Shown: positions 2,461-56,060 of the stretch, piece by piece
Layout of the letters: each line of letters opens with the position of its first letter
Numbering within the stretch: the first letter of the stretch is position 1
Source of the DNA: Mobula hypostoma
Lineage: Eukaryota
Reading direction: 5' to 3'
DNA: 64,000 nt
NCBI RefSeq assembly: GCF_963921235.1
Contig: NC_086097.1
Location: 131,504,001-131,568,000 of the forward strand
The notes under the pieces: generated by a model
The model's database searches: none
What the model was told of the DNA's origin: nothing
What the model saw: only the letters and a program-made list of their open reading frames with translations
Translations under genes and position numbers: made by a program

Positions 2461-2713
2461 CACACACAGCAGCTAAAGAGAATCAGGGAGAACTCACCAG
2501 GCCAGGTAACATCTATGGAAAAGAGTACGGTCAATGTTTTGGGCAGAACTTATCTCTACACCTCAGCTTTTTTGTCTCTACTCCTATTGAAGGATCTCAG
2601 CCTGAAATATCGACTGTACTCTTTTCCGTAGATGCTGCCTGGCCTGCAGAGTTGCTCCAGCATTTTATGTGGGCTGCTTGGATTTCCAGCATCTGCAGAT
2701 TTTCTCTTGCTTG
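2461..2713. repeat. Head-to-head inverted pair of PLE 3'-terminal (hammerhead-region) sequences
   Basis: caggccaggtaacatctatggaaaagagtacggtc on the left mirrors gactgtactcttttccgtagatgctgcctggcctg on the right; same sequence family as 1390-1450. Confidence 0.8.
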
Positions 2714-4250
2714 AGAGTTAGGAGCACCAAGTTTCTGGGAGTGCACATAACAGATGATCTTACCTGGTCCTTCAACACCACCTCTTTGGTCAAGAAAGCA
2801 TGGTACCATCTCTGCATCCTGATGAGATTGAGGAGAGTGAGGCTCCTCCCACCCCTAGTTCTGACCAATTTTTACAAGAGCTCCATCAAGTGTGTCCTGA
2901 CCAGCTGCACTACTGACTGACAAGGCATATGACTGCACATCCCTACAAAGGATTGCGAGGACTGCTGAGAGGATAATCGGCATCTCTCTTCCACCCATCA
3001 GAGATATTTATCAGGACTGCTGTGTTCACAGGGCCCTTGGCATAGTCAATGATCCCTGCCATCCTTCCAAAAATCTTTATGACCCACAACCATCAGGCTG
3101 TAGCATTAGAACAAGGAATGTTAGAATGGGAAACAATTTCTTCCCCAGGCCGTAAGACTACCAAACTCCCTGCCACCAGCCGGGTCTCATCATATATGAA
3201 GTGCCAGGTGTGTTCTACTTTTTACTTTTTATCTTGTGTCATAAATGCACCTTATTATTTGTTAATTTACTCATAGTAACACAGTGGATTGTGGCTTATT
3301 GGGACACATCAGGACCAATTCATTTTGTCCCAATTAAGTGGGCTGGCCCAATTAGATGAAGTTTCATGGAAATAGTTAAAAAGTTATAAAAGGACAAACT
3401 ACCATTTAACTGAGTAATAAATTATGTATTTAAGTGGAATACAAAACAAATTAGAACATTATCAACCCTACTACAGTAACATAAATTTGTGCGTTGGTTC
3501 CTAGTATTTATCGGTGGGGGAATTCATATCATGTACGCTGCTGTGTTCTTTTGATTGACTGTAAATGAACAAAATTAGTGCAGACACCTTGTGTAGACAA
3601 TGAACTGCCCTCATATAATGCTATCGATTGCATCCTCCAAATCTTCATTTTCATTGTAACATTCCAAATGATTGTTGACCTCTTCAAATTATTTGTAGTT
3701 CCTAACTTATTGAAAGTAGTGAAATCATTTCATTTTCACTCCCAACTGTTTCTGGCATCTCCACACTTGAATGCTTGAAACCGCAGTGAACAAAACAGTT
3801 CTGAATTGTCTAACTGCTTATTCCTTGCTAACTATCAATGACAAAAATCATTGCTTTTTGAACACAAGCACACGTGATAACACTATTTAAAAACAGTTTG
3901 CTCTAAGCACAGTGTAAAGTCTAAAGGCTACACATGCATGCATTTGTTGCTAGTTAGAAGCTATTCAGCAACATTATCCTGGCCCAATTAAGTGGCATAG
4001 TGTCCCAAGTAAACAAAGGGAATCCCAACCATTTTCTTCATTAGTGTTTGTTCTTCAAGATTTGTCCCAAATAACTGGCTGTCCTGATTAATAGATGGGC
4101 CAATTAACTGGAATCTGCTGTATTACTTCATATGTTAAGTGGGTGAGTTACATGTACTGTGTTGCACACCTGGATCCGAAGGAATGTTGTTTTGTTTGGC
4201 AATATACATGTGTGTGGTTGAATGACAATAAACTGAACTTGAACTTGGAC
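2714..4250 (+). mobile_element. Rex1/Babar-type LINE 3' fragment, split by a DNA transposon at 3282-4120
   Basis: KFLGVHITDDLTWSFNTTSLVKKA...LTNFYKSSIKCVLTSC in ORF 2669-2920; the 3' UTR resumes at 4121 and ends in caataaactgaacttgaacttg. Confidence 0.85.
3282..4120. mobile_element. Non-autonomous Tigger/pogo-like (Tc1/mariner) DNA transposon
   Basis: Imperfect terminal inverted repeats: cagtggattgtggcttattgggac vs reverse complement of the right end, cagcagattccagttaattggccc; subterminal gtcccaa/cccaattaa repeats at both ends; right flank TA, left flank CA (probably a mutated TA); interrupts a LINE tail. Confidence 0.75.
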
Positions 4251-4789
4251 ATATCACTATCCGACTCCACACAGTTTTCTTTTGCTGGACCTAAAGCTTC
4301 CTCTTGCTTCTGAAAGGCTTTTCCCTCTTCCGAGTTCTTTCCTAATGTTTTACCAATCAAGTTAAGTTACCCTCTGTGGGAGAAGCTTTGAAGGATCATT
4401 CTGTTTTCCAGTTCAGTGGATCATTGTGATGCAGCTTTCAAACTAATGATGGATACATACACACCTCACGTTCTGGAGCTGAGGTTTCCTGTGATTTCAC
4501 TACTGGTCTGGCATAAGGGAAAACTTAATTGCTCACTGACCCCCCCCGCCCCACAGCATATTATTTCCAGCACCAAAATGTTAAAATTAGAAAGTGATTT
4601 GTATTTTTCTTCCATTTAGACTGATTTTTATCTCTCTAAACTGCTTATGCAGTGAAAATTTGGTGTTCTTACTCTGTTGCATCAACATAGGCACCATAAA
4701 GTTTACACTCAAAATGTCAAAGGATGGAAAAATAATCCTATTTCTCGCCCACTGAAAATCAGAATTTCTGTAATGACCTGACCTCTGCC

Positions 4790-5070
4790 AGCACTAACAC
4801 CTTGCAAGGTCTGCACACTCCTCCAATATTTTCTGACCGTCAATGGCGATTGTGCCTTCCGCTGCCAGTGTCCCAAGCTTTGGGATCATCTCCCTTAAAC
4901 TCCCTACCTCACTTCCTTCCTTTAAGATTCACCTTAAACTCTGCCGCTTTGACCAAGTTTTTGTTCACCATCTAGTATCATTTATGTAGCAGCATCGATT
5001 TTTGTTTGATGGCAGAGTTGTGAAGCAACTTAAGATGTTTTTGCTAAATTATAGGCACCATAAAATGGAT
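4790..5070 (+). mobile_element. Old L2-type / DeuSINE-type 3' tail
   Basis: ccttaaactctgccgctttgaccaagttttt...tgtgaagcaacttaagatgtt...ggcaccataaaatg resembles the L2-derived tail of shark SINEs (recognition by eye). Confidence 0.5.
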
Positions 5071-5712
5071 ATTGTTGAATCCATATTAATAGCAGAGAAA
5101 AGAAGGATGTCTGGAGAAGGAGAAAAGCCTTGGGAAAAAGAATTCTGAAAAAGCTTAAGATTATACAACGCGCCTATTCTAAACTGATTTTTTTTCTTTC
5201 TCCACAATCCGGTGTTGTGTTCACAACACAAAATCAGAGAATACTTCCCAGTACAGAATACAAAAGGGCAGCTCTACCCATACATCTGTGAGTTCTTAAA
5301 CAAAGGTTTGTTTGTATGCCTCAATCACTCCTGCTCATGAAAGTGGACTCTTTACTTGAAAAACATTTCAGGGAAACACTCTAAACCAACATCCTGGTAT
5401 AAATTTGCAAAATGCAATACAGGCCCGATTGTCTTTAGAGTGGATGCAGGTTGCATACGAATAGTCCTTTCAGAAATGTAATGTTCTTTGCATGGCTCAC
5501 TGGCTAATGTACAATAAATCAACAAAGACAAGCTTCAGTTCCGCTATTGGGCAGTAAAGCCACTGTTATTTTATCTTTTTACAGTATTTAATTGGAAGGT
5601 GCTTCCCCATCAACTCCCTTACTGAAACATAACCCAGCTTTCAAATGAGTTCTTCTCTTAAGAGATTAGAAAGATAACTTTTTTCTCTCTTTTGCACTCA
5701 TGCACACACTCA

Positions 5713-5728
5713 TACAGACACAGACAGA

Positions 5729-5787
<59 letters not shown>

Positions 5788-5796
5788 ACACACATA
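5713..5796. repeat. (CA)n microsatellite
   Basis: Directly visible CA dinucleotide run. Confidence 0.97.
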
Positions 5797-7190: not shown

Positions 7191-9228
7191 TTTACTAGCT
7201 TGCCTTTCAAGTTCCTTGCAGGATCTCTCAAACTGCAGCGAATGAGATATTTTAATATAAACTCTTCCTGTAACATTGGATACACAGCAGCCCATATATA
7301 CACAGCAAAGTTCCAAAGCAGCAGTATGATATTAACCTGATAAACTCCTTTTTAGTGGTTTTGATTGAGGATTAAATATTAATCAGGGCTTGGTAGAATA
7401 CCTGCTGTCCAAATGAGATAACAGATACGACTTCATAGATAATGTCATTACCATCTTTGAGAGAACAGTACAGGATTATCAGCTGAGGAAATTGTGCTTC
7501 GGGGATCCAGCACAGGGGCTTTGGCTGCACATCTCCCAAATGAAATAATTTTTTTTCAGCAGACTTCATCGTTGCTACACGGAGCGAGGAGTGGGGAGGA
7601 GAGGAGAGGACAAATTAGTAGACCTGCGCGTGGAATGTCCATTCAGTGGACTTCTGAAGTATTAGTTCAAATACAAGGTTTAAGGAGAGAAGGAGCAGGT
7701 TGGCTGTGTATCTTAGTCTAGCTACTAAGGATTGGAGAGCAGGTTCAACGTTCAAAGTAAAATTTATTATCAGAGTACATGCATGTCATCCCATACATCC
7801 CTGAGGTTCTTTTTCTGTGGGCATACTTAGCAAATCTATAGAACAGTAACTGTAAACTATAAACAAACTGTGCAAGTGCAGATATAAATAAATAGCAATA
7901 AATAACAAGCATGAAGTAACAATGTAAAAGAGTCCTTAAATGAGTGCAGCTATCCCTTTTTGTTAAAGAATCTGATGGCTGGGGGATAGTAACTGTTTTT
8001 GAACCTGGTGTGGCAAGTCCTTCTGTACCTTCTACCTGATGGCAACAATAAGAAAAGAGCGTGTCCTGGGCAGTGAATTCTTTGATGATGGATGCTACTA
8101 TTCTACAGCAACCTTTCGTGTAGATGTGCTCAATGGTTGGGAGGGTTTTAGCCATGATGTACTGGGCCAAATCCACTATCTTTTGTAGGATTTTCTGCTC
8201 AAAGGCATTGGTGTTCCCATGCCAGCCATAATACAGCCGATCAGCACACTTTCCATCACACATCTATAAAGTTTGCCAAGGTTTTTTGATGACATTCTGA
8301 ACCTCTGCAGACTCCTGAGGAAGTAGAGGTTCGATCGTGCTTTCTTTGCAATAATATTTATATGATAGGTCCAGGATATGTCCTCTGAGATGGTGACACC
8401 CAGAAATTTAAAGTTACTGACCCTCTCCACCTCTGATAATTGCTGGCTCATGGACCTTTGGTTCCCCTCTTCTGAAGTCTACAATCAATTCCTGGGTCTT
8501 ATTGACATTGAGTAGGAGGTTGTTGTCATTACACCACTCAGACAAATTTTCATTCTTCCCTCCTGTATGCCAATTCATCACCTCCTTTGATAAAGCCCAC
8601 AACAGTGGTGTCACCTACAAACTTGTATCTGGTGTTGGAGCTTTACTTAGCCACAGAATCATAGGTGTAAAGTGAGTAGAGCAGGGGACTAAGTACACAT
8701 CCCTGTGGTGCTCCTGTGCTGATGGAGATTGTGGAGGAGATATTTTTGCCAATTGACACTGATTGGGGTCTACAAGTGAGGAAATCCAGGATCCAACTGC
8801 ATAATGGGGAATTGAGGCTCATGTCTTGGAGTTTATTGAGGGGATGATGGTGTTAAATGCTGAGCTGTAATCGATGAAGAGCATCCAGATGTATGCATCG
8901 TTGCTGTCCAGATGTGTGAAGAGCCAACAAGATACCACCTGCTGTAGACCTGTTGCTTCAATAGGCGAATTGAAGTGGATCCAAATCGAGATTCAGACAG
9001 GAGCTGATTTACTTCAACACCAACCTCTCATAACACTTCATCACTGTGGATGTAGATGTCACTGGGTGATCGTCACTTAAACAAGTTACCATACTCTTCC
9101 TGGGCACCAGTATGATTGAAGCCTGATTGAAGTAGATGGGTGCCACACACAGCCGAAGCGAGAGATTGAAAATATTCGTGAATACACTAGTCAGTTGGTT
9201 GGCACAGTTCTTCAATACTCCAAGGATT

Positions 9229-10848
9229 GGCAAGGATTCCCCTCCCGCTACAGATGACCCCTTCTCTTGTCTTCAACCTTCCTCCTCCTCCTCCTGGACA
9301 CCCCGCCCGGGCCTTCTACCTGCACTTGATCTCTTCATCTCCAACTGTCCCCGAGACATCAACCGTCTCAACTTCACCACTCCTCTCTCCTGTTCTAACC
9401 TCACTCCCTCTGAACGCACTACCCTCCACTCTCTCCGCACTAGTCCCAACCTCACCATCAAACCTGCTGACAAAGGTGGTGCCGTAGTAGTCTGGCGGAT
9501 GGACCTCTACCTCACTGAGGCCAAATGGCAGCTCTCTGACACCTCCTCTTACTTACCACTGGAACAGGACCCCACCAAAGAACATCAAACCATTGTCTCC
9601 CACACCATCACTGCCCTTATCAACTCCAGAGACCTTCCATCCTCAGCTGCTAAACTTACTATTCCCACACCCCGTACCGCTCAGTTTTACCTCCTCCCAA
9701 AGATACACAAGCCTGACTGTCCTGGTAGACTCATAGTTTCTGCCTGCTCCTATCCCACTGAACTTGTATCTGCCTACCTGGATTCCATTTTGTCACCCAT
9801 AGTTCAGTCCCTCCCCACCTACATCTGGGATGCATCCCATGCCCTCCACCTCTTCAATAACTTCCAATTCCCCGGTCCCAACTGCTACATTTTTACTATG
9901 GATGTCCAATCCTTATACACCTCCATTCCCCATCAAGAAGGCCTCAAAGCCCTCCGCTACTTCCTGGATAATAAACCTCACCAGTTCCCCACCACCACTA
10001 CCCTCCTCCGGTTGGTGGAACTGGTTCTCACACTTAATAACTTCTCTTTTGGCTCTTCCCACTTTCTTCTGACTAAGGGTGTAGCTATGGGAACTCGCAT
10101 GGGCCCCAGCTATGCCTGCCTCTTCGCTGGTTATGTGGAACAGTCTGCGCTCCAGACCTATTCTGGTACTGTTCCCCAATTTTTCCTTTGGTACATTGAT
10201 GACTACATTGGTGATGCTTCGTGCACCCATGCTGAGCTCATCAAATTCATCGACTTTACTTCAAACTTCCACCCAGCCCTCAAATTCACTTGGTCTATAT
10301 CTGACACTTCTCTCCCCTTTCTTGATGTCTCGGTCTCCATCTCTGGAGACAGACTGTCCACTGACATCTTCTACAAGCCCACTGACTCTCATAACTACCT
10401 CGACTATACCTCTTCCTACCCCGCCACATGCAAAAATGCCATTCCCTATTCCCAGCTCCTCCGTCTCCGCCGCATCTGCTCCGAGGATGAGGCTTTCCGT
10501 TCCAGGACATCTCAAATGTCCTCCTTCTTTAAGGATCGTTGTTTCCCTTCTACCGTCATCAATGATGCCCTCACCCGCATCTCCTCCATTTCCCGCACTT
10601 CGACCCTTACCCCATCCTCCCGTAACCACAACAGGGACAGAGTTCCCCTTGTCCTTACCTACCACCCCACCAGCCTCCGGATCCAGCTCATTATCCTCCA
10701 CAATTTCTGCCACCTTCAACAGGACCCCACCACTAAGCACATCTTTCCCTCTCAACTCCTCTCTGCTTTCCACAGGGATTGGTCCCTCCGCGACTCCCTT
10801 ATCCACACTTCCATCCCCACTGATCTCCCACCCGGCACATTCCTGTAA
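9229..10848 (+). CDS. PLE reverse transcriptase (open frame, N-terminally truncated)
   Basis: Motifs IKPADKGGAVVV, FYLLPKIHKP, MDVQSLYTSIP, KGVAMGTRMGPSYA, YIDDY, LPFLDVSV, KPTDSHNYLDYTS; the first ~31 aa of the tracked ORF (from 9136) are antisense Rex1 sequence, not part of the element. Confidence 0.9.
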   Translation, partial: GKDSPPATDDPFSCLQPSSSSSWTPRPGLLPALDLFISNCPRDINRLNFTTPLSCSNLTPSERTTLHSLRTSPNLTIKPADKGGAVVVWRMDLYLTEAKWQLSDTSSYLPLEQDPTKEHQTIVSHTITALINSRDLPSSAAKLTIPTPRTAQFYLLPKIHKPDCPGRLIVSACSYPTELVSAYLDSILSPIVQSLPTYIWDASHALHLFNNFQFPGPNCYIFTMDVQSLYTSIPHQEGLKALRYFLDNKPHQFPTTTTLLRLVELVLTLNNFSFGSSHFLLTKGVAMGTRMGPSYACLFAGYVEQSALQTYSGTVPQFFLWYIDDYIGDASCTHAELIKFIDFTSNFHPALKFTWSISDTSLPFLDVSVSISGDRLSTDIFYKPTDSHNYLDYTSSYPATCKNAIPYSQLLRLRRICSEDEAFRSRTSQMSSFFKDRCFPSTVINDALTRISSISRTSTLTPSSRNHNRDRVPLVLTYHPTSLRIQLIILHNFCHLQQDPTTKHIFPSQLLSAFHRDWSLRDSLIHTSIPTDLPPGTFL

Positions 10849-10849
10849 G

Positions 10850-11245
10850 CGTTAAGTGCTACACCTGTCCCTACACCTCATCTCTTGCAACCATTCAGGG
10901 CCCCAAACAGTCCTTCCAGGTGAGACAACACTTCACTTGTGAGTCTGTTGGGGTCATCTATTGCATCCGATGCTCCCGGTGCGGCCTCCTCTACATCGAT
11001 GAAACCCGACGCAGATTGAGGGACCGCTTCGTTGTGCGCCTCCACTCCGTCCGCCACAACAGACAGGATCTCCCGGTAGCCACCCACTTCAACTCTGCTT
11101 TCCATTCCCATTCAGATATGTCCATACATGGCCTCTTCTACTGCCATGATGAGGCTAAACTCAAGTTGCAGGAGCAACACCTCATATACCGTCTAGGTAG
11201 TCTCCAGCCCCTTGGTATGAACATAGAATTCTCCAACTTCCGAAA
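10850..11245 (+). pseudogene. PLE GIY-YIG endonuclease domain, separated from the RT by small indels and a stop near 10840-10855
   Basis: HFTCESVGVIYCIRCSRCGLLYIDETRRRLRDRF...HFNS...EQHLIYRLGSLQPLGMNIEF; YIG is changed to YID. Confidence 0.88.
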
Positions 11246-11452
11246 TTCCCTCCCCCTCCCTTCCTCTATCCCTATTTCATTCTATCCCCTCCCCCAGCTC
11301 CCTCATGTTTCCGCCTCCTTCTTCTACCACCCATTGTTTTCAGGGCTATGACGTCAATGCTGCCCCTCTCCCACCCCTTTGTCTTTCAAATTACTGGTCT
11401 TTCAACTGACGCTACAAGCATTCTTCAAATCCGTCCCCATCTTTCATTCTTC

Positions 11453-11488
11453 AGTCCTGACGAAGGGTTCCGGCCCGAAACGTCGACT
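11453..11488 (+). ncRNA. Minimal type I hammerhead ribozyme motif in the PLE 3' terminus (predicted cleavage after C11484)
   Basis: Stem I AGTC/GACT; core CTGACGA (11457-11463); extra A; stem II GGGT-TCCG-GCCC; GAAA (11477-11480); GTC triplet; stem III reduced to the ACGT palindrome. PLEs are known to carry minimal hammerheads. Confidence 0.82.
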
Positions 11489-12269
11489 CATCATTTCTGA
11501 CTGATGCTACCCGACCTGCTGAGTTCATCCAGTGTACTGAAAGTGTTTCTTCAATACTCCCCCAGGTACTCTATCTGGACCAGATGTTTTCATTGGATTC
11601 ACTCTCTTGAAGGCAGCCCGCATGTCATCTTCAAATACTGAGACCAAAGGATCATTGGAAGACAAGGGGGTGTGTGACGATTCTTCCCTGTTCTGGTGGT
11701 CAAAGCAAGCATAGAAGGGCTGTTATGGAAGTGAAGCTCTGTTGTCGTAAGATTTAACTTTGTAGGCAGTTTTGGCATTCAAACCCTGCCACAGCCACCA
11801 AGCATCCTTCAATGCCGGTCCAGTCCACAATCTCCACTTCGCCCGAGAGATGGCTTTCTGGAGATCATACCGGCACCTCTTGTAGCATTCTTGTTCTCCA
11901 GATTAGTAATGAAAAGTAGTGTTGGTCTCTTGATGCTGAGATGCCACTCTGTGTATTGCTCAGGGGACACCTTGCAATTGTCTCTATGTATTTATGGAGA
12001 CTTCATTGTCCTGCACTCCATGTAACACAACACTGAAAACCATAGGGGAGCAGACAGTGCTGCAGGAAGAGCAGTGAAAAGACTCCGAGCCTGACGGCCA
12101 GGAAGAACATCCCGAGAGCAGCAGGAGCAGGGCAAGCCAGAGGGAGAGGGTGGTTCCCAGGCAGATATCAACTGTCTCATCTCTGAAATAATCAGGGAGG
12201 GAGACATTCGAGTCTTGAGATTTTGGGAAGTCCTGAATGCAGAGTTGTTTCTCCTAAGGAAACTACTAT

Positions 12270-16075: not shown

Positions 16076-16093
16076 GGAAGATACCAAGGAACT

Positions 16094-16254
16094 ATTTCTT
16101 ACTATCCCTTCTTTCAATTAGTCCTGACGAAGGATTCTGGCCTGAAACGTCAACTGTACCTCTTCCTATAGATGCTGCCTGGCCTGCTGCGTTCACCAGC
16201 ATTTTTTGTGTGTGTTGCTTGAATTTCCAGCATCTGCATATTTCCTCGTGTCTG
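16094..16254 (+). mobile_element. Solo PLE 3'-terminal copy with near-intact hammerhead core
   Basis: ttagtcCTGACGAaggattctggcctGAAACGTCaactgtacc...; possible TSD aggaact at 16087-16093 and 16255-16261. Confidence 0.8.
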
Positions 16255-20189: not shown

Positions 20190-21030
20190 TAGAATCAGAA
20201 TCAGATTTCTTATCATCAGGCCAGGCAGCATCTATGGAAAAGAGTAAACAGTTGGCATTTTGGACTGAGCCCCTTCATCAAGTCCTGAAGAAGGCTTTTG
20301 GCCCAAATCATCGACAGTTTACTCCTTTCCATGGATACTGCCTGGCCTGCTGAGTTCTTCCAGCATTTTGTGAGTGTAGCTTGGATTTCCAGCATCTGGA
20401 GATTTTCTCGTCTTAGAATTATTATCATTGTCTTTTTGACGTGAAATATGTTTTTTGGCGACCACAGTACAGTCTAAAGATATAAAATACTATAAATTAC
20501 ATAGTATATAGGATCTAAAAAGGAATAATGAGGTTCTGTTCATCATCCTGTGCATTGGAGGCTCCATAACACACTGTGATGCAAACAGTCAGAATACTCT
20601 TTAGTATACATCTGTAGAAATTTGCAAGTCTTTTGCAGCATATCATATCTCTTCTAACTCCTATTGAAGAGTTGCTGGTGTGTCTTCTTCATGATTGCGT
20701 CAATGTCTTAGTCTTAAGATAGATCCTCTGAGATGTTGAACCCAGGATCTCTCATCTCCTGTACACCTCCTCATTACCATGTGAGATTTTACCAACAACT
20801 GTGGTGTCATTTGCAAATTTATGCTAGATGGTGTTTGAGCTGTATTTAGCCACACAGTTGTGAGTATATAAAGAGTGGAACAGTGGGCTAAGCGTGAATC
20901 CTTGAGATGCATCTGTGTTGATTGTCATGAGGAGGAGATATTAACACTGATCCATACTGCCTGTTTTCTCCTGATGAGGAAGTTAAGGATCTAGTTGCAG
21001 TGGTACAACAGGCCCAGGTTTAGAAGTTTG
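20190..21030 (-). mobile_element. Deleted Rex1-type LINE (minus), with a PLE palindrome inserted in its tail
   Basis: (aatcag)n tail; gtggtgtcatttgcaaatttatg is the reverse complement of KFA(N/D)DTT; same layout as 42690-43680. Confidence 0.7.
20216..20412. repeat. Head-to-head palindromic PLE-terminus element centred on the hammerhead
   Basis: caggccaggcagcatctatggaaaagagtaaacagttg...ccccttcatca|agtcctgaagaagg...gacagtttactcctttccatggatactgcctggcctg; flanks agatttcttatcat / agaattattatcat. Confidence 0.82.
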
Positions 21031-21404: not shown

Positions 21405-21552
21405 CACACAAGCAACACACACAAAATGCTGGAGGAATTCAGCAGGCCAGACTGCATCTATGGAAAAGAGTACAGTCGACGTTTCTGGCCAAGATCCTCC
21501 AGCATTTTGTGTGCCTTGCTCGGATTTCCAGCATCTGCTGGTTTTCTCTTAT
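21405..21552. repeat. Inverted, internally deleted pair of PLE termini
   Basis: caagcaacacacacaaaatgctggagg...gtcgacgtttc on the left; cctccagcattttgtgtg...gatttccagcatctgc on the right. Confidence 0.75.
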
Positions 21553-21569
21553 TAAATAGTTAAAACAGA

Positions 21570-29435: not shown

Positions 29436-29665
29436 AAACAAAAAGCAGACTGCTGGAGGAATTCAGCAGGTCAGCAACATCTATAGAAGAAAAATGGATA
29501 GTTGACATTTTGGGTTGAGACCCTTCATCTGGATTGGATGAAGGGTCTTGATCTGAAATGTTGCCTTTCCGCTTCCCTCCACAGATGCTGCTCGTCCCAC
29601 TGGGTTCTTCCACCAGAATGTTAGCTGCTCCAGATTCCACAGTCTGCAGTTCTTGTGTCTCTATT
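29436..29665. repeat. Head-to-head palindromic PLE-terminus element (older subfamily), centred on the hammerhead core
   Basis: ...gagacccttcatc|tggattg|gatgaagggtcttg...; arms ctgctggaggaattcagcagg...atctatag vs cacagatgctgc...ttcttccaccag. Confidence 0.8.
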
Positions 29666-34143: not shown

Positions 34144-34144
34144 T

Positions 34145-35910: not shown

Positions 35911-35911
35911 C

Positions 35912-38105: not shown

Positions 38106-40484
38106 AAAAGAACAAGAATAAGTGCACAAAGAATGCCTGCTCACAAATCACATCTAACAAAATGTCTGCACAGCAAGCAGAATAGGAGAACTTTAGTCAC
38201 AACCGTTTTAGTTTGATGCTGGAATTGTGAAGGAGGCTCCAAGTCCTCCAGTTTGACCTTTACTGGTTGTCATTCCAATACACTGTGCAAATGATTTATG
38301 CTTTTGACCACATTATTGATTGAGTGCACTAAATTTTTCAGATTACTGTACTGAAGAGAGTATATTCTACAGAGACCAAACAAAAGAGACCAATCCCAAA
38401 GTGATATCATGTTCAGCATGAAGCAGCTCCACTTAATGCTTTCTTTCAGTGAGAATTTATGGACTGTGATACTATTATATTATTACATTACATTAACTTA
38501 TGCTATTGAGTTAAAAAGCCCTTGGTAGCTCTTAATTTTTAGGTAGATTGTGAGTTTTTTTTAATATCGGAAGTACTTGAAATAATAGACTAGCTAAATC
38601 CCAACAGCTGAAACTTGTAAAATAAATTCTGACTCCCTCTAAGGGAGATTACTAGGGTCACATGAGTACAGAGAATATTGGAAAATCATGGAATCAGAGG
38701 TTAGAGTGCATGGAAGGAAATTTAAACAGGTTTATTTATCGGGATAGGACTATTTTGCAGTCTGGCTGAATTTCCATTTTTTCAGTATCTTAGCAAACTG
38801 CTGAGTTTAGCCTCCGATCCAGAAATGCTTCCCCTATCACATTTCTCCTGTATACTTCAAATGGATTCACTTTAATTTTAAAATTAGCTTGCATTTATGT
38901 AGCATGTTCCACATTTTCGGCACCTCACCCATGTGTTTCCAAATCATCTTGAGGTCAATGGTATCCTCATACAACCCAAAACATCAACATTTCCCTTCCT
39001 CCCACTGATGTTGGTCAACCCACTGAATTCCTCTTGTAAATTGTTGCTCCAGAACCCATTTTCTGCAGTCTCTTGTGTCTCTATCTTGAAGTCAATGTTG
39101 TGATGTAGGAAATATTACACAAATTAATTTTAAAACAATAATTTCGTAGCTTATAAATTACAAGTATCCCAAATGCTTTGCATAATCAGTTATCAAAGTA
39201 AATTTATTATTAGCTTACAGGAGGGGAGGATAGAATCAGATTCGGATTTATTTATCCTAAGCACATTGAAACTTGCAGTGAAATGTATTGTTTGTGTTAA
39301 CAACCAACACAACCCAAGAATGTGCTGGGGGCAGTCACAAGCATTGCCACATATCCTGGCTCCAAAAGAGCATACCCACAACACATAACACAATAATCAA
39401 CAAAACTACAACAGCAAAACAAGCCCCATTCGATCCTCCCACCCACACACATATACACAGTCCCTTAACCCCAGGACAAACTGTCTTCTTCAGCCTCCAG
39501 CAGACTTGGACTTGGAGACATTGGGCCTTCAACCTCCCCAGTGGACTCACACAGATTCATGGACTCGAGGCTTCGGCCACTAGGCCTCAACTTCTGGACT
39601 TCCAAATGAAGACCCCCGATGATGACTCCAAACACTCGGCCTCGAACTCCAGACTTACCTATGACAGGACCCTGAACACTAGGCCTTGAACTCAGGCATA
39701 CCTAGGAGGTCACCTGCCCACACAGAATTCTGATCCAGAACCTGCCAACGACTCGATGACCCTGGGAAGGCCACCAGCCTTGCTAGTCTGACAGAGTGAT
39801 ATCCAACCACGGATGTCCTACATCAGCATCACCAACCTTTGAATGCTCTGACCTTTGTCCTTGTCTGAGATTCCTGTCCCTAAACCTGATCCTGACACTA
39901 ACCTCTTCCTCTGTTCCAAAACGATCCCTACGAAACAAAAACAGTTTGAGCTGTGACCTCGAAGTCACAGTTTGAGCTGTGACGGAAGCTAGCTCAGTGC
40001 CATCATGACATGCCAAAAGTGTTTAGCTCAAGAAAAAAAGAATTGTTTTAAGCAGAGAAAAATCACTGAAATCTATGGTACCAATGGAAGCTATTTGACC
40101 CCAGGTGTCCGTCCTCTCTCAGGAAGAGCTTTAGATTAATTCTTCTTTCCAACTCACTATCCCCGGACTCCTTGAAGTCTCATCCAGGGACTTATAAATA
40201 TGAGTGTTTCAGCCTCCCCCACCCTCTCAGGTAATGAATTATGTACTGGTGGTCTTGGCCCGAAATGTCTACTGTTTACTCATTTCCACAGATGCTACCT
40301 GACTTGACGAGTTCCTCCAGCATTTTGTGCATATCACAACTTATCTTGGGTGACATCATCAGGGAAATGGGTGGTGTAAGCTGAAAGAATATTTGCTTTG
40401 TGTGAATTTATAGCTAAGAAAAGTGGGCCATAGCTAGCTAAGGCAATGGTCAGTTCAACCTGATGAGGCATATTAGGGAGACCA

Positions 40485-42689: not shown

Positions 42690-43680
42690 AATCAGAATCA
42701 GAAACAGATTTAATATCACCGGCATATGTCCTGAAATTTGTTAACTTCATTGCAGCAGTACAATGAAATATATGATAAATAAATATAGAGAAAAATACTG
42801 AGTTACATTAAGTATATATATGTATATTAAATAGCTAAGTTAAAATACGTAGTGCAAAATAACAGAAATAAAAAAGTAGAGAGGCAGTGCTCATGGGTTC
42901 AATATCCATTTAGAAGTTAGATGACAGAGGGGAAGAAGCAGTTCCTGAATCACTGAGCGTGTGCCTTCAGCCTTCTGAACCTCCTTCCTGACAGTAACAG
43001 TGAGACCAGGGCATGTCCATGGGGATGGGGATCCTTAATGATAGACGCTGCCTTCCTAAGGCACAGCTCCCTGAGGATGACTTGGATACTATGGGGGCCA
43101 ATACCCATGTTAGAGCTGACTAATATTACAAGTTTCTGCAACTTATTTCGGTGTTGTGCAGTGGCAACCCCCTCCCCCATACTAGATGGTGATGCAGCCG
43201 GTCAGAATGCTCTCCAAGCTACATTTGTAGAAGTTTTCAGGTGCTTTAGTTGACAAACCAAATCTCCTCAACTTCCTAAAGAAATATAGCTGCTGTCTTG
43301 TCTTGTTTATAGGTGCATCAATATGTTGGGTCCAGGTTAGGTCCTCGGAGATATTGACACCCAGGAAATTGAAATTGCTCACTCTCTCCACTCTGATGTC
43401 CCTGTGAGGATTGGTTTGTTTTCCTTTGTCTTACCCTTCCTGAAGTCCACAATCAGCTGTTTGGTCTTGCTGACGTTGAGTGAAAGGTTGTAGCTGTGAC
43501 AGCATTCAACTAACTGATATATCTCACTCCTGTATGCCCTTCTGTCACCATCTGAATTTCTGACATCAACGGTTATATCATCAGCAAATTTATAGATGCT
43601 GTTTGAGCTATGCCTAGCCCCACCATCATGGGTGCAGAGAGAGTAGAGCAATGGGCCAAGCACACATCCCTGTGGAGTGG
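42690..43680 (-). mobile_element. Rex1-type LINE RT and C-terminal fragment
   Basis: PQGCVLGPLLYSLCTHD, YKFADDITV, LNVSKTKQLIVDFRK, ERVSNFNFLGVNISEDLTW. Confidence 0.92.
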
Positions 43681-44349
43681 CACTTTTCAATAAAAGTTGT
43701 TGATACACTGATTTAATCAGATCAAGTTTGTCATATGCACAAGAATATGTGTCCACAGGTGTAATGAAAAGGTTACTTGCAGCAGCATCACATGCATATG
43801 GCATTAAAGACGTGACATTCATAAGAAAAGCTTTGAATGTAACCGATACAATATCACCCAAGAAAAAGCAACAGTAGAACAAGTAAAACAAAGTCCACTG
43901 TGCTGAAAAGCGACCAAAGTGTTTTTTCTATTGTGAAGTTGTACGGTTTGGTTGAAGAACTGAATTGTTGAAGGGAAGAAGCTGTTCTTGAACCTTGTAG
44001 GGGTGCGACTTCAGGCTTCTGAGTTTTCTGCCTGATGGTGACAGTGAATAGATGGCATGGTTGGGATTTTTTAACGAAAGATATTCCCTTCTTGAAGCAG
44101 CAGCTCTTGTTTTCCAGAAACTCATCCCTGCCAACTTTTAGACTTAAAATGTCGGCAGAATATGGGTAACTACATCTCAGAATGGGTAGAAGGCCGGGTA
44201 GGTTTGACTGAAGCAGAAATTTATTGACGCAGAGGATGGTGAAACTTTGAAATTCTCTCCTCCATAGCGCCTGGAAGCTCAGATGCTGAATTCATTCATA
44301 CTAGTGGCCAATAGATTTCTGGACATTTGGATATGCGGATAATTCAGAG

Positions 44350-45090: not shown

Positions 45091-47735
45091 TGCTGGAAGA
45101 CGGAGCTGTGGTCAATATCTTTATCTTGATCTTGATGAATGGTGGGACAGGAATGAAGGTCAGGCACTAATTCCTGCTCCTACTTATTCTGTTCTCGCCT
45201 TCTTATATAAGGTTACCTTCATTGTAACTTCAATAATGAGTCCAATACTTAAAAGTACATTTGCAGCTTATTAATGAAGTGTATTTTGAATGGGAATTAT
45301 ATTTGTGTACATACACTCCTCTTCGTAGAGTTTATTAACTTATCACATCATTCATGAATTGTACCATCCTAGACACAGTCTGCTATGTCTGCCCACTTAT
45401 ATTTTCCCAAGACAGTGCATTGGAAGACTTGATGATCTACATTTGATTCCTGTCCTGTTTGGTAGAATAAACTCTGGGTAGGGACTTGGGTTCATAGGTT
45501 AATTAGCCATCGTAAATTTCCCATGTGAAACATTAACTCTGTTTTTCTTTACAGACTCCACTGACCACAATTTTTGCTTTTTATTTCAGATTTCCAGCAT
45601 CTATACCTATTGTTTTGATTTTTGCAGTTCAAGGTATTGTGAATTAGTGCATTGATCAGAAATGTATAATTATGGATTATTCAGCCCTGATCCCATTCAG
45701 CTTTCAAATAGGTCAAAATGGATTGATACTTTTAATCCATTTATCTACCTTCCTTTACTGTGCCAAATATCATTTGCACTAACTTTACATTAAAACCATT
45801 TTTTACTCTGCCTAGATTCTCATCAACTCCCCCCCACCCCCCCACCATCAAATTTTACTTCTCACCAGCACACGGGGGAAAGTTTACAGCAGCCCTTTTA
45901 ACCCACCATCCTGTGTGAAGTGAGGGAGGAAACCTGTGCAGTCAAGAGAATGTGCAGACTCTGTATAGACCGCACCTAAGATCGGGATTGATCGCGGGGT
46001 CTCCGGCACAGTAAGGCAGTAGTTTCACCAGTTGTGCCAAAGTGCTGTCCTTCGAGACTAACGTGCTAAACCAATGTGTTAAACAATGGGACAAAACCCG
46101 CATTTTCTTTGATAGATACTTTTCATTTATGTTGAAGCAGTTCAGCTTACTTGCACGTAATGACTTACATTATTGGTCAGATCACAATCTGAACTGATTC
46201 AAGATAGCTTTGCCGACAACATGATGGGAGGAAGAGGAAAGCAAGGAGCCTATCACAATCACCAAATCACCAGGTTTTGATCCCACCTGGGTCTCAGAAT
46301 ACACAATCTTCCCAGGTCGCTATACATATGAGGGAAAAGAAAGTTGAACACATGTGTACCTGCTTTTTTTAAAATTCCACAAGCACAATAAACATGTCCA
46401 TCTTTCCTGATGGCTTTGGTATCACAGATATTTTGATCTGCTCTCATATATTGTCATTTGCTTATGGGCAAAGTGATTGTTTTAGATTTCCAGCATCTGC
46501 AGATTTTCTCATATTTGTGATTATCTTGGTTGCCTGATAACAAAACATTGATTAAGGAATCCAATGGCAAGACAGGAGAAACTGTACTTTCATGACTGCA
46601 TTTGACTGTGAAAGAATCCTTGCAAAACTGGACATTGGGAGTCAAGATGAAAGCGCTACTGCCAGCCATGGGTTATGACAGCCTGAAGTCCCATACAGCT
46701 TATTCAATAATATTTGCCTGTGATGCTGCTGTAATAAAGTTTTTAATACACATGTGCATATTTGTGATTGTGCATATGGCCATAAATTCAATTAAACTTT
46801 GACTTTGATCAGAATACTCATAAACTCTATTACTTAGATGGAAAGGATCAGAGGCTTTTAGGGTAGCATCATCTCTACATTTCCATACAAATTCCACACC
46901 ATGCTGTCTAATAGTACCATTCCTTTATGATCTTAATCTCTGAACTCCCTACTCAGCAGTTTTCTGCAAGTGCCTGCACAGTAAAGACTTAGTGGTGAAA
47001 AGTGGAAGCTCACCACTGAATTTACAATGGCCATCAAGGATGTGCATTAAATGCCTCCTTCTGCTAAGGACATTATTTACAATTTTCCTTCCTCCGTTGC
47101 CATTAATTCAAAATCATTTTCTAATCTTCTTCAGAGGCATTGAAACAGAAAACTCAGTCAGAGGTTGGCATTAAGAAGAAAAAGGAAGAGGTAGGATTAT
47201 AGGTTTACATTACAGAAGGAGTCTATTCATTTTGAAGTATCCATCCATAATGGCCTAAACCATGGACATTAGTGTAATAATATCACAAACAAGACAGAAT
47301 CTACAAATGCTGGAAATCTAAGCAACACACTCAAAATGCTGGAGAAGCTCAGCAGGCCAGGGAGCATCTATAGAAAAAATGTACAGTTAACGTTTTGGAC
47401 TGAGATCCTTCAGATGAACTGAAGCTTCACAGATGCGTAACTAAAAATCCTTAGTGTTTGTTGGGTTTTTTTTGGATTTAGGACATAGTAAACATTGACT
47501 TCAGCAAACAGCCTTCAGCTCTGAAGAGGCATTGAAGATTAAACCTAAAATGTAACTCTGAACAATGGGTTCCTAAGAACCATGAACCATTAATTGGAAG
47601 AGACTGCAGTTAATTGGAAGATCAAACAGCGCTGCTTTAAGATCATTATTTGTGTGTATTTGGGTGTCAGTAGTATGGGTGCGAAGGAGGGAGGAGTGAA
47701 GGTGTTGTGTAGATCAAAGAAAGCATTGTATTTGT

Positions 47736-47890
47736 GGACAAGAGAAAATCTACAGATGCTGGAAATCCAAGCAACACACACAAAATGCTGGAGCAACTCA
47801 GCAGGCAAGGCAGCGTCTATGGAAATGTCGACTGTACTCTTTTCCATAGATGCTATTGTTCCTGCTGAGCTCCTCCTGTATTTTATGCAG
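47736..47890. repeat. Head-to-head palindromic PLE-terminus element joined next to the GTCGAC cleavage-site palindrome
   Basis: ctcagcaggcaaggcagcgtctatggaaat|gtcgactgtactcttttccatagatgct...cctgctgag. Confidence 0.78.
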
Positions 47891-49317
47891 ATTGTAAATA
47901 TGGAATTGTCCTCGATTTTCTTTGATCTTTAGCACCTAAAATGTTGTGTAATGCTGGGTCAAGCAGGCCGTTTCCCCCCTTAAGGGGTCACAATCTGACT
48001 CCTGTTGTACCTCATTTTGCCGAATAAAGAGGCAGTTTCATAACTACCAGTACTTCTCTTTGGTGACTTCATTCACGTAAGAACAGCGTTTATAGAATGA
48101 AAGTAGAATACCATACAGATGGAGCTATTCAGCTGTTTGAGCCTGTACCAACTTTCCTAAGGAGCTTTCCCATTAATCTCACTCCCTGTTTTATTTCCTC
48201 CAAAACCCCACACTTTTTTTCCAATCTACTTTTTTAATAACAAATCTCTTTTAAAATTTGGCATCAGATATACTTCTTTCTCTCTTTCAGGCAGAGCATT
48301 CCTGATCATTGCAAAACTACTGCTCATTCTCTACATAAACAGTCTATCGAAGAAAAATTTCCACACAAGTCTAACTCATTTGCCTCTCACCCTAAATCTC
48401 TATCCTCTGGTTACAAAATCTCCTGGCACTTGAATTAATTCCTCAATTGTTCAGTTACATCTTTCAGTGGTTTTCCTCTTTACATAACTTTCCTAAGTGC
48501 GGAATAAACCACAGAAGAGAAGTCCCTTATCTCTGGGACCATTCTGGTGAAAAGAAACCAATGAACTATTAACTCTGTTTCTCTCTTCAAGGTGCTGCCT
48601 GCCCTGCTGACAATTTTTAGTTTCACCAGTATTTATTTCAGATTCCCAACATCTGCTGTTATTTTTGCTTTTTGACCATTCACATCTCTGAATTCATTTC
48701 GGCACTATAAACGTGGTCTGTATTGTGAAATCTGAGCATGTTCAGAGATTTGCTAAACTGTCTCCAAGCAAGTGCATATTTGTCACTATTACCCCAGGAA
48801 ATTGATCTTGCGCCTTTGGCTATCCATTGAAGAACTGGAAATGAAGCAAAGCTACCAGAGAAGAATGGGCAAAGGCATGCTACCGAAGGGTTTTGTCTTG
48901 AAATGTCAACCGTACTTTTTTCCACAGATGCTGATTTCCTCCAGCATTTTGTGTGTGTTGCTTGGATTTCCAGCATCTGAAGATTTTCCCTTGTTTGCAT
49001 CCTTGTTATTCCTACTTCCTCAGGAGGCCAAAGAAATTTGACATGACCCTTTTGACCCCAAGCAATTTTTATCGATGCACCATAGAAACCACTCTATCCA
49101 GATGCATCACAGTTTGGTGTGGCAACTGTCCTTCCTGAGATGGCGAGGTGTGCAGAGAGTGTGAATGCAGTTCAGCAATCATGGAAACCGGTCTTAGAAA
49201 CATAGAAACATAGAAAACCCACAGCACAATACAGGCCCTTCGGCCCACAAAGTTGTGCCGAACATGTCCCTACCTTAGAAATTACTAGGCTTACCTATAG
49301 CCCTCTATTTTACTAAG

Positions 49318-52140
49318 CTACATGTACTTAACTAAAAGTCTCTTAAAAGACCCTATCATATCCACCTCCACCACCATTGCTGGCAGCCCATTCCATGCAC
49401 TCACCACTCTCTGAGTAAAAAACTTACCCCTGACATCTCCTCTGCACCTACTCCCCAGGCACGTTAAACCTGTGTCCTCTTGTGGCAACCATTTCAGCCC
49501 TGGGAAAAAGCCTCTGACTATCCACACGATCAATGCCTCTCATCATCTTATACACCTCTATCAGGTCACCTCTCATCCTTTGTTGCTCCAAGGAGAAAAG
49601 GCTGAGTTCACTCAATCTATTCTCATTAGGCATGCTCCCCAATCCAGGCAACGTCCTTGTAAATCTCCTCTGCGCCCTTTCTATGATTTCCACATCCTTC
49701 CTGTAGTGAGGCGACCAGAACTGAGCACAGTACTCCAAGTGGGGTCTGACCAGAGTCCTAGATAGCTGCAACATTACCTCTCGGCTCCTAAATTCAGTTC
49801 CATGATTGATGAAGGCCAATACACCATACGCCTTCTTAACCACAGTGTCAATATGTGCAGCTGCTTTGAGTATTCTATGGACTCGGACTCCAAGATCCCT
49901 CTGATCCTCCACACTGCCAAGAGTCTGACTATTAACACTACATTCTGCCATCATATTTGACCTACCAAAATGAACCAATTCACACTTATTTGGGTTGAAC
50001 TCCATCTGCCACTTCTCAGTCCAGTTTTGCATCCTACCAATGTCCCACTGTAACTTCTGACATCCCTCCACACTATCCACAGCACCTCCAAACTTTGTGT
50101 CATCAGCAAACTTACCAACCCATCTCTCCACTTCCTCATCCAGGTCATTTATAAAAATCATGAAGAGTAAGGGTCCCAGAACAGATCCTTGAGACACACT
50201 ACTGGTCACCGGCCTCCATGCAGAATATGACCTGTCCACAACTACTCTTTACCTTCTGTGGGCAAGCCAGTTCTGGATCCACAAAGCAATGTCCCCTTCG
50301 ATCCCAAGCTTCCTTACTTTCTCAATAAGCCTTGCGTGGGGTACCTTATCAAATGCCTTGCTGAAATCCATATACACTACATCTACTGCTCTTCCTTCAT
50401 CAAGGTGTTTAGTCACATCCTCAAAAAATTCAATCAGGCTCGTAAGACATGACCTGCCTTTGACAAAGCAATGCTGACTACTCCTAATCATATTATACCT
50501 CTCTAAATATTCATAAATCCTGCCTCTCAGGATCTTCTCCAACAACTTACCAACCACTGAGGTAAGACTCACTGGTCTGTAATTTCCTGGGCTATCTCTA
50601 CTCCCTTTCTTGAATAAAGGAACAATATCCGCAACCCTTCAATCCTCCGGAACCTCTCCCGTCCCCATTGATGATGCAAAGATCATCGCCAGAGGCTCAG
50701 CAATCTCCTTCCTCGCCTCCCACAGTAGCCTGGGGTACACCTCATCCAGCCCTGTCGACCTACCCAACTTGATGCTTTACAAAAGCTCCAGCACATCCTC
50801 CTTCTTAATAGCTACATGCTTAAGCTTTTCAGTCTGCTGCAAGTCATCACTACAATCACCAAGATCCTTTTCCATAGTGAATACTGAAGTAAAGTATTCA
50901 TTAAATACCTCTGCTATTTGCTCCAGTTCCATACATACTTTCCCACTGTCACACTTCATAGGTCCTATTCTTTCATGTCTTATCCTCTTGCTGTTCACAT
51001 ACTTGTAGAATGCCCTGGGGTTTTCCTTAATCCTGCCCGCCAAGGCCTTCTCATGGCCCCTTCTGGCTCTCTTAATTTCCTTCTTAAACTCATTCCTATT
51101 AGCCTTATAATCTTCTAGATCTCCAACATTACCTAGCTCTCTGAACCTTTTGCAAGCTTTTCTTTTCTTCTTGACTAGATCTATTACAACCTTTGTACAC
51201 CATGGTTCCTGTACCCTACCATAACTTCCCTGTCTCATTGGATCGTACCTATGCAGAACTCCACAAAAATACCTCCTGAATATTTGCCACATTTCTTCCC
51301 CACTTTTCCCTGAGAACATCTGTTTCCAATTTAAGCCTCCGATTTCCTGCCTGATAGCCTCATAACTCCCCTTACTCCAATTAAATGCTTTTCTAACTTG
51401 TCTGTTCCTATCTCTCTCCAATGTTATTGTAAAGGAGATAGGATTATGATCACTATCTCCAAAATGTTCTCCCACTGAGAGATCTGACACCTGACCGGGT
51501 TCATTTCCCAATACCAAATCAAGTACAGCCTCTCCTCTTGTCAGATTATCTTCATATTGTGTCAAGAAACCTTCCTGAACACACCTAACAAACTCTACCC
51601 CATCTAAACCCCTTGCTCTAGGGAGATGCCGATCAATATTTGGGAAATTAACATCTCCCATCACGTCAACTCTGTTACTATTACACCTTTCCAGGATCTG
51701 TTTCCCTCTTGGCTCTCGATATCCCTGTTACTATTGGGCGGCCTATAAAAAACACCCAATAAAGTTATTGACCCCTTCCTGTTCCTAACCTCCACCCACA
51801 GAGACTCCGTAGACAATCCCTCCATGGCGTCCAGCTTTTCTGCAGCTATGACACTATCTCTGATCAACCGTGCCACGCCCCCCACCTCTTTTGCCTCCCT
51901 CACTGTCCATTCTGAAACATCTAAAACCCGGCACTTGAAGTAACAATTCCTGTCCCTGAGCCATCCAAGTCTCTGTGATGGTCACCACGTCGTATCTCCA
52001 AGTGCTGATCCACGCTCTAAGCTCATCCGCTTTGTTCACAACACTCCTTGCGTTAAAATAGACGCAACTCAAACCTTCGGTCTGAGTGCATCCCTTCTCT
52101 ATCACCTGCCCATCCTCCCTCTCGCACTGTCTACAAGCTT
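49318..52140 (-). pseudogene. CR1 ORF2 (endonuclease and reverse transcriptase), broken into several frames
   Basis: Tracked ORFs 51854-52204, 51661-51903, 50777-51664, 50249-50572, 49448-50239 and 49318-49533 are consecutive pieces of one APE-RT polyprotein. Confidence 0.93.
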
Positions 52141-52204
52141 TCTCTATTTGTGAGCAAACCTCCTCTTCCCTATTCGCTTCAGTTTGGCTCCCACACCCCA
52201 ACAA

Positions 52205-53446: not shown

Positions 53447-53800
53447 AGCAACACACACAAAGTGCTGGAGGAACTCAGCAGGCCGGGCAGCATCTGTGGA
53501 AAAGAGTAAACAGTCAACATTTCCAGCTGAGACCCTTCACCAGGACTGATTTGAACTTTTTCAGGGTAGGCATTCCTGGAAGAGACTTCATGATGTAGTA
53601 CCCCATTCGTGAACAAGAGAAAATCTGCAGATGCTGGAAATCCAATGCACTCACACAAAATGCTGGAGGAACTCAGCAGGCCAGCCTGCATCGATGGAGA
53701 GTACAGTCGAAGTTTCGGGCCGAGACCCTTCGCCAGGACTGGGAAGGAAAGGGGAAGAAGTCAGAATAAGAAGTGGGGGGGGGGTGCGCAGATGGGAGGA
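53447..53800 (-). repeat. Two tandem minus-strand PLE 3'-terminal copies with mutated hammerheads
   Basis: Reverse complements read cagtcCTGGTGAagggtctcagctgGAAATGTTgactg (53511-53548) and cagtcCTGGCGAagggtctcggcccGAAACTTCgactg (53704-53741). Confidence 0.82.
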
Positions 53801-54369: not shown

Positions 54370-55232
54370 AAAGCTTTAACAAAGAGGTAGCTGAAGTGAT
54401 TGTGGAGGCATCAGTAATGATCTTTCAAGAATCACCAGATCTGGAATGGTTCCTGAGGATGGGAAAATTGTAAATAAAGGTGTAGAGTATTTTCTAATTG
54501 AGGAGAAAATTCAAAAATCAGAGATGCAGAGGGGCTTGGGAGTCCTCACACAGCATTTCCTAAAGGTTAACTTGAAGGCTGAGTTTGTGGTAAGGAAGGC
54601 AAATGCAACGTTGCATTCATATTGAGAGGATTAGAATACAAAAGCAACTATGTAATGCTAAGTCTTTATAAGGCATTAGTCAGACCACACTTGGAGTATT
54701 GTGAGTAGTTTTGGGCCTCTTATCAAGAAAAGGTGTGTTGTCATTGGATAGGGTCCGGGGGAGGTTCATGAGAATTATCCCAGGAATTAAAGTATTAACA
54801 TATGAGGAGTGACTGACAGCACTGGGCCTGTACTCACTGGAGTTCAGAAAAATCAGGGGTGAATCTCATTGCAACCTATCGAATATTGAAAGGTCTGGCT
54901 AAAGTGGATGGGAGAGTATGTTTCCTATAATGGGGGAGTCCAGAACCAGAGGGTTCAGACTCAGAATTGAGGGACATCCATTTAGAACGGAGATGTGGAT
55001 AAATTTCTTTAGCCAGAGGGTGGTGAACCAGTAGAATTCATTGCCACGGACAGCTTGCAGACCAAATCATTGCAGGCAGTGGTTGATAGATCCTGATTAA
55101 TTACGGAGTCAAAGGTTACGGGGAAAAGGCAGCAGAATGGGGTAGAGATGGATAATATATCGGCCATGATGAAATGGCAGAGCACACTTGATGGCCAAAT
55201 GGCCAATTCTGCTCCTATGCTTTATGGTCTAT
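54370..55232 (+). mobile_element. CR1 LINE 3' fragment with internal deletions
   Basis: ctttataaggcattagtcagaccacacttggagtattgt (LYKALVRPHLEYC); ttctttagccagagggtggtgaa; ctgctcctatgctttatggtct tail. Confidence 0.88.
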
Positions 55233-55254
55233 GTGCGATATGATATGTTGCACA

Positions 55255-55530
55255 TTTAGAGATAAAGCACACAATAGGCCCTTCCAACCTTTCAAACCAC
55301 ACTGTTCAGCAACCCCTGATTTAAACCTAGCCTAATCATGGGACAATTTATAGTGAGCAATTAACCTACTAACCAGTATGGCTTTGGACTGTGAGATGAA
55401 ACTGGAGCACCCACACATTCCACGGGGAGGATATAAAGGCTCCTGACAGGGGATGCCGGGATTGAACTCCAAGCTCTGACACCCCGAGTTGTAACAGTGT
55501 CGAGCTAACCACTACACTGCCAAGGCCCAA
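55255..55530 (-). mobile_element. V-SINE-type SINE
   Basis: Minus-strand counterpart of 37812-38105 (gggattgaactcc B box; tttggactgtgagatgaaactggagcaccc V-domain-like). Confidence 0.7.
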
Positions 55531-55836
55531 CTAGTCTTTTTCCTCCTCTGCCTTCTCCCATCCCCACCACCCACAAAGACTATTCCTATTTTCTCTGCTG
55601 GTCCAGATACTTTTTGCCTCAGCCTCCCCCTGTGAGAGTGAGTTCCTCATTCTTACCATTCCCTGTTGATCTTTAATTCTCTGCTGGATCGCTTGGTCAT
55701 TCTATTGTGTTGACAGTCTCTTGTTAGTACCTTACCTCAGAAGTGGAAATATTCTCTCTGCCTACACCCTGCTTCCATCATTTTTAAGAACTCCATGAGT
55801 TTCTCAAGAGAATTCAGACCTACTTTATTCAAATCT

Positions 55837-56060
55837 CAAACACGAGAAATTCTGCAGATGCTGGAAATTCAAGCAACACACATCAAAGTAGCTGGTGAAT
55901 GCAACAGGCCAGGCAGCATCTCTAGGAAGAGGTACAGTCGACGATTCAGGCCGAGACCCTTCGTCAGGACTGGGGTCTCGGCCTGAAACGTCGACTGTAC
56001 CTCTTCCTAGAGATGCTGCCTGGCCTGCTGCGTTCACCAGCAACTTTGATATGTGTTGCC
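55837..56060. repeat. Young head-to-head palindromic PLE-terminus element (87-bp arms, 13-bp spacer on the hammerhead core)
   Basis: Arms 55873-55959 and 55973-56059 differ at 5 positions; flanks tttattcaa-atct / tttattcaacatct. Confidence 0.92.

Follow-up and report, generated by a model that had tools for sequence, protein, structure and literature searches.

The 64,000-nt stretch of the Mobula hypostoma genome analysed here (contig NC_086097.1, positions 131,504,001 to 131,568,000; hereafter the window) contains six head-to-head pairs of termini of a Penelope-like retroelement (PLE), whose arms end in or near a predicted hammerhead ribozyme motif. An earlier note on this DNA had proposed that all six break at or next to the hammerhead, and that the ribozyme fold is a recurrent point at which reverse transcription halts, folds back or switches template. 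Split alignments, with which we mapped the arm ends and junctions, confirmed the six pairs; an inverted-repeat search recovered the arms of five of them and missed the one at 47736. Positions are numbered from the predicted hammerhead cut (GAAACGUC^GACUG), +1 being the first base 3' of it, so that the motif covers -33 to +5. Our main result is that the landmark lies at the 5' border of the hammerhead motif and is common to ordinary truncated copies, so that the earlier note was right about the place.

The youngest family, A1, is represented by a young pair at 55839..56060. Its tailed left arm ends at -32, its tail-less right arm starts at -20, and it is flanked by a target duplication with a 9-nt exact core. 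The left arm contains, on the minus strand (55934..55972), a complete minimal type I hammerhead, with predicted stem I CAGUC/GACUG, CUGACGA, stem II, GAA and GUC. The A2 pair at 20213..20414 has ends at -27 and -32, a tailed right arm and a 14-nt target duplication with 2 mismatches. Family A3 accounts for the pair at 2461..2713, whose left arm (minus strand, 2490-2547) ends at -15 and whose tailed right arm (2555-2713) starts at -56, with 2461-2490 as its decayed outer end; for the pair at 21409..21553, with ends at -17 and +42 and the tail on the short right arm; and for that at 47738..47887, with ends at +12 and -8, a 4-nt overlap (GAAA) and a tailed left arm. The right arm of the latter had been reported to begin at the GTCGAC across the cut; it starts 5 nt before that hexamer. 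The remaining pair, at 29436..29665, is old (79-85% identical to the models), with ends at -35 and -26 and a tailed right arm.

In each pair the 35-40-nt tail is found on one arm only. At least one end lies inside the motif in 6/6 pairs, as do 8 of the 12 arm ends, and none of the 12 falls within 3 nt of the cut. Target duplications were clear or near-clear at 55837 and 20216 and weak at 47736 and 29436; none was found at the 2461 and 21405 pairs. As junctions and flanks all differ, the six pairs are separate events, which agrees with the independence claimed in the earlier note. They fall into three family models, where that note had counted at least two diverged subfamilies. The window is richer than average, with 6 short pairs vs 1.5 expected from the sample described below.

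From its predicted protein and its mode of insertion, the element is identified as an endonuclease-positive PLE. The reading frame of locus L190 encodes a reverse transcriptase (RT) followed by a C-terminal GIY-YIG domain (RVT_1, E 4e-4; GIY-YIG, E 0.015; both below the Pfam cut-offs) and contains the motif YCVWC..C..LYIGET, the window copy being 65% identical. A CxxxxCxxC motif precedes the endonuclease (EN) domain, a feature that a passage of PMC8557442 names for the Neptune and Nematis clades and that makes the element a candidate member of Neptune. The tail continues into an open reading frame (ORF) in L055 and 39 further copies, as in a pseudo-long terminal repeat (pseudo-LTR), and the insertions combine an inverted 5'-truncated copy, an optional tail and a target duplication, as in endonuclease-positive PLEs. 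The candidate hammerhead has the CUGANGA and GAAA core, stems I and II and the NUH site of the minimal type I class; an Rfam scan of the window gave no match at gathering score. In A3, C replaces A at core position 6 in 13/25 copies (e.g. L075:8803, L137:7289, L126:7716), and the wide spread of copies with this altered core suggests that transposition may do without an intact core.

Two other identities were considered and rejected. A miniature inverted-repeat transposable element, or another non-autonomous palindrome copied from one master, needs the same junction throughout, and the junctions vary across 29 near-identical loci and the sample. A non-LTR retrozyme consists of head-to-tail hammerhead arrays (for the definition and tandem retrozymes, see 10.64898/2026.07.22.740005), and 259 of the 263 sampled arms are single or inverted, with 4 tandem.

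The genome measures 3.48 Gb. It was sampled in 146 stretches of 10 kb, taken at round coordinates on 23 contigs (1.46 Mb, window excluded; 25 of the 146 adjoin the window), and 58 further loci made up a targeted sample retrieved using only the segment downstream of the cut. The five family models (A1, A2, A3, A4 and C), each built from real copies, have the hammerhead motif in common and differ in the pyrimidine-rich 3' untranslated region (UTR). Arms interrupted by a stretch edge or a model end were censored, and two junction rows, the second for L126 and that for L134, were omitted. Loci L002-L030, retrieved by a whole-pair query, were excluded from the position statistics; 10 seeming single copies that turned out to have a short inverted arm were reassigned to the pairs; and L031, possibly two unrelated copies, was retained. 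The tail count omits pairs without an outer end and the single family C pair. L008 and L020 (C137 and C136) carry the identical insertion and flanks on two contigs, 97% alike, and represent a segmental or haplotype duplicate; L020 was dropped from the counts of mate likeness, joins and extra bases and kept in those of tails and target duplications. The 1.46-Mb sample held 51 pairs, a density of about 35 per Mb.

Junctions were strongly enriched at the hammerhead, as the earlier note had claimed, but not in all pairs: 31 of the 51 sampled pairs had an end in the motif (17 had both there), 20 had no end in -45..+15, and 14 had both ends beyond -100. Since these 14 join more than 100 nt upstream, the observation that all six window pairs lie at the hammerhead reflects the selection of short pairs. 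Among the pair-arm ends passing +5, 48/87 stop in the motif, vs 4.5 expected at the upstream rate or 7.9 at the just-downstream rate. Stop rates, computed from 102 pair arms and 144 single-copy arms, place a sharp peak at the 5' edge, -33..-29, where stops are about 40 times as frequent as upstream. For pair arms the rates, per 100 nt, are 0.28 (+25..+6), 0.74 (+5..-8), 1.81 (-9..-28), 6.12 (-29..-33), 0.68 (-34..-45) and 0.14 (beyond -100); for single copies the values in those six bins are, in order, 0.58, 0.26, 0.31, 4.82, 1.76 and 0.12.

This edge peak is not special to inversions, contrary to what had been proposed, for single copies share it (24/120, vs 15/87 pair arms; Fisher p 0.72). 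The earlier note had opposed a peak at the ribozyme to the general 5' truncation of the element; the general truncation itself peaks at the motif edge. What does distinguish pairs is ends inside the motif (-28..-9), found in 25/87 pair arms vs 7/120 single copies (p 1e-5). By family, the edge peak comprised 17/90 arms in A1, 30/100 in A2, 6/29 in A3, despite the C at core position 6, and 3/6 in A4; it was found in 0/6 arms of family C. Restricting the count to copies with 90% or more likeness to the model preserved it (12 ends from pairs, 12 from single copies), and it was also present in copies with an abutting target duplication. No peak was detected at the cut site, to which a role had been ascribed: ends within 3 nt of it number 5/87 for pair arms, 2/120 for single copies and 0/121 for A1 arms. 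Neither does the ribozyme fold appear to halt RT, as a structure stop is expected 3' of stem I (+4..+9), where only 4/164 pair ends lie. The motif boundary is also splice-acceptor-like, and the surroundings of A-32 are, in all five models, YYANWYY-like, which we take to be an initiator-like consensus. Finally, ORF-bearing copies that run on from the tail stop at -29..-37 in only 2/28 cases, vs 21/85 for A1 terminal arms (p 0.058) and 66/231 overall (p 0.012).

The construction of the pairs follows regular rules. Exactly one tail was present in 104/107 pairs (single copies were tailed in 91/196), and the outer ends lie at two fixed sites, about +68 in the tail-less arm and about +105 in the tailed one. 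Target duplications flank 24/44 sampled and 42/53 targeted pairs (66/97), vs 6/600 swapped controls, and measure about 13 bp (12-15 bp in 53/66). The arms are coupled: among 88 pairs, window included, both arms were long in 18 (4.7 expected), mixed in 5 and both short in 65, and the mate of an edge-ending arm reached beyond -45 in 1/27 pairs vs 8.0 expected (p 0.0009, window included). In 8 long pairs, mates differ by 2.8%, vs 5.4% for other loci. The farther-reaching arm of 75 pairs was the tail-less one in 44 and the tailed one in 30; fold-back, one of the routes named in the earlier note, would always make the tailed arm the longer, and in its simple form it is not supported as the general route.

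At the joins the arms overlap by 0-4 nt, with at least 2 nt in 19/36 flush or overlapping joins vs 6.4 expected, and 38/74 joins carry 1-6 extra bases; both features suggest end joining. Where an arm ends at -36..-29, the extra bases at the join are rich in C when read on the sense strand (23/65 letters, p 0.005), possibly by untemplated addition. Some joins (L040:1073-1263, L054:565-1732, L208:4135-5194 and L043:8300-8574) hold 7-27 nt that match neither arm and may be repair filler.

The window contains other copies of the element. On the plus strand, a long single-direction A1 copy (34..1454) running off the window edge retains the ORF end, the pyrimidine-rich 3' UTR and the hammerhead, with no tail, and a decayed family C copy (9136..11551) retains an RT reading frame and a 3' hammerhead (11452-11489). 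Single copies lie at 16094..16254 (plus strand, starting at -58, tailed), 40251..40329 (plus, -19, no tail), 47285..47424 (minus, about -36, tailed), 48885..48997 (plus, -23, tailed) and 60818..60939 (plus, -32, old). A partial tandem on the minus strand (53447..53784) contains a copy that starts at -77, includes the tail and continues for about 60 nt into the element body; a second copy, tail-less and starting at -33, is joined to it. Like those at L234:1463-1822, L285 and L311, this tandem appears to derive from a template jump, in which a copy whose end lies at the edge or within the 3' UTR carries on into a different part of the element. Unrelated to the PLE are an LTR retroelement remnant with an integrase zinc-binding domain (36334-36867; PF17921) and fragments of other elements resembling long interspersed nuclear elements (43379-43927, 49448-50248 and 63323-63874; RVT_1, PF09004).

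Our favoured explanation, which we give an even chance, is that a staggered target cut provides two primers, one at each end, for RT on a single RNA, and that this RNA often begins at the hammerhead edge. We infer twin priming on one RNA from the tails, target duplications, joins and arm coupling. A dimeric element protein would nick both target strands about 13 nt apart, and each 3'-OH would prime at one or the other RT start site. If the RNA started at about A-32, the cDNAs would run off after 100-140 nt, and end joining would link their two 3' ends head to head, usually after one of them had been trimmed into the motif (-28..-9); RNAs extending further upstream would yield the long-armed pairs. 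Such a putative 5' end fits both the sharp edge and the coupling of the arms. An anole PLE assayed in vitro offers parallels: both strands were nicked and extended from two adjacent RT start sites matching the tail, the protein is a predicted dimer, and hammerhead cleavage was dispensable (PMC11167929).

Several observations weigh against this explanation. Only 11/136 sampled single copies have a target duplication, which leaves the primary nature of most single-copy ends unconfirmed; 4 of 21 confirmed single copies end at -33..-29. A far-upstream target duplication was sought for 7 young single copies, and only L205 gave a convincing case (30 nt away, with a short inverted arm). The likeness of mates could also reflect equal age or gene conversion, and the arm lengths of long pairs are uncorrelated (Spearman 0.13, n=16). 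As many as 26/28 ORF-bearing copies extend past the edge, which implies that most do not begin at -32, and the signature of cap copying was not seen, a G preceding AG in only 6/64. In Drosophila virilis the start has been mapped 46 nt upstream of a 75-nt intron (PMC2377424), hence 121 nt upstream of the motif edge, and helix I begins where that intron ends (PMC4209133). The sole tested landmark at this place is thus a splice acceptor and not a start site, and all five family models have a pyrimidine run and YAG at the edge. Moreover, the two strands showed no start-site difference in PMC11167929, leaving the one-tail rule so far unexplained by the in vitro system.

The main alternative, less probable in our judgement, retains twin priming and attributes the stop at -32 to a roadblock on a longer RNA, either splicing factors attached to the 3' splice site that the pyrimidine run and AG would form or an element protein on the folded motif. 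That the run and YAG directly precede T-30, that the D. virilis intron ends at this very spot (PMC4209133) and that ends spread across -33..-30 are all consistent with a block, which, being shared, would likewise couple both arms. The low stop count at the edge among copies that had passed through the whole element (2/28, vs 66/231 overall) disfavours a fixed roadblock. As for splicing itself, 0/7 jump junctions among 334 motif sites had a GT donor, 0/92 copies of the best donor-like site were joined to the hammerhead, and no spliced copy was found. Contigs from 6 of 22 sequencing runs, whose RNA origin is a guess, weigh neither way: a GT..AG joint to the hammerhead was absent among the 15 of 45 and 15 of 74 joints listed.

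A hairpin in the cDNA of the hammerhead, with the mirror of stem I at its base, could halt synthesis, restrict trimming or let the cDNA self-prime the second arm; we consider this rather unlikely. Self-priming is also considered in PMC3846280. The 5' strand of stem I is exactly -33..-29, stem I closes the predicted cDNA fold in 3/5 models, mates are alike, and 2-4 nt overlaps at joins are in excess. However, the predicted folds are weak (-3.3 to -5.9 kcal/mol), the joins are not perfect hairpins, many of them have extra bases, and a self-copied arm can neither gain a tail nor outreach its template, as the tail-less arm, ending at the fixed +68, does in 44/75 pairs.

We hold it slightly more improbable still that the clustering arose after insertion or from detection, through palindromes losing their centres, short pairs being easier to see and models failing on diverged 3' UTRs. 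Detection did shape the earlier note, in which only short pairs were seen although 17/51 sampled pairs are long, and centre loss could yield the pair-specific ends at -28..-9. Neither process accounts for the edge peak of single copies, nor for its presence in copies close to the model (90% or more alike), beside abutting target duplications and in A1, whose model extends 2.2 kb upstream.

Ribozyme cleavage does not make the junction: that self-cleavage creates the RNA 5' end where RT stops would suit the 3/82 pairs lying wholly downstream of the cut, but it is largely refuted for the bulk, because the peak lies 30 nt upstream, in a segment that would be lost on cleavage, none of 121 A1 arms has its end within 3 nt of the cut, and cleavage is dispensable in vitro (PMC11167929).

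The integration route of PLEs and the role of their hammerheads are poorly understood, and the edge stop would provide a testable clue to PLE movement. Our data set three constraints on models of integration: one tail per pair, coupled arms, and a stop at the 5' edge of the motif with none at the cut. At about 35 pairs per Mb, this genome represents a very large data set with which to address them.

Twin priming is known from L1 elements, where the other target nick also primes on the RNA being copied; the outcome is a 5' inversion whose join shows short overlaps. The internal site from which this second primer copies varies in L1, and the two parts cover separate stretches of the element. Here, in contrast, two fixed start sites 35-40 nt apart are used and the same segment is copied twice. 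In LTR retroelements, minus-strand strong-stop DNA is primed near the RNA 5' end and gives a short run-off product, and terminal redundancy is a further likeness to PLEs. We tentatively raise the possibility, doubtful as it is, that PLEs form a strong-stop DNA of their own. Bound close to where the RNA starts, a dimeric protein would prime both strands at two fixed sites, the products would run off at the hammerhead edge and would have to jump to the 3' pseudo-LTR for the remainder to be copied, and short pairs would be failed jumps. The primer would be target DNA and not a tRNA as in LTR retroelements, and strand transfer in PLEs is hypothetical. If true, one step would account for the tail, the inverted arm and the partial tandems, and also for the retention in genomic copies of pre-hammerhead sequence, which is an intron in Drosophila.

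Inverted, one-tailed PLE insertions are already known, and the mapping of the edge peak is apparently new: a search of mainly open-access literature found no published map of PLE junctions against the hammerhead or its edge. Insertion units of endonuclease-positive PLEs consist of a pseudo-LTR, an adjacent inverted 5'-truncated copy and a 30-40-bp tail at one end (PMC8557442; PMC3846280), and ours resemble them in the head-to-head layout, one-sided tail, target duplication and partial tandems. The relevant passages of those two papers propose EN-mediated resolution or antisense self-priming and contain no junction map relative to the hammerhead, whereas here the one-tail rule is counted and the peak mapped. 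The same minimal type I motif occurs in the pseudo-LTRs described in PMC4209133, as dual motifs 100-700 bp apart on opposite strands and as many single motifs; self-cleavage and circularisation were proposed there, whereas the genomic ends in our data avoid the cut. Poseidon of Anolis (PMC11167929) belongs to another clade and its ORF starts in stem II, in contrast to the first in-frame ATG seen here about 135 nt after the cut. Nevertheless, it is alike in the two adjacent RT starts that bound the tail, in the nicking and extension of both strands, and in having no need, in vitro, for hammerhead cleavage.

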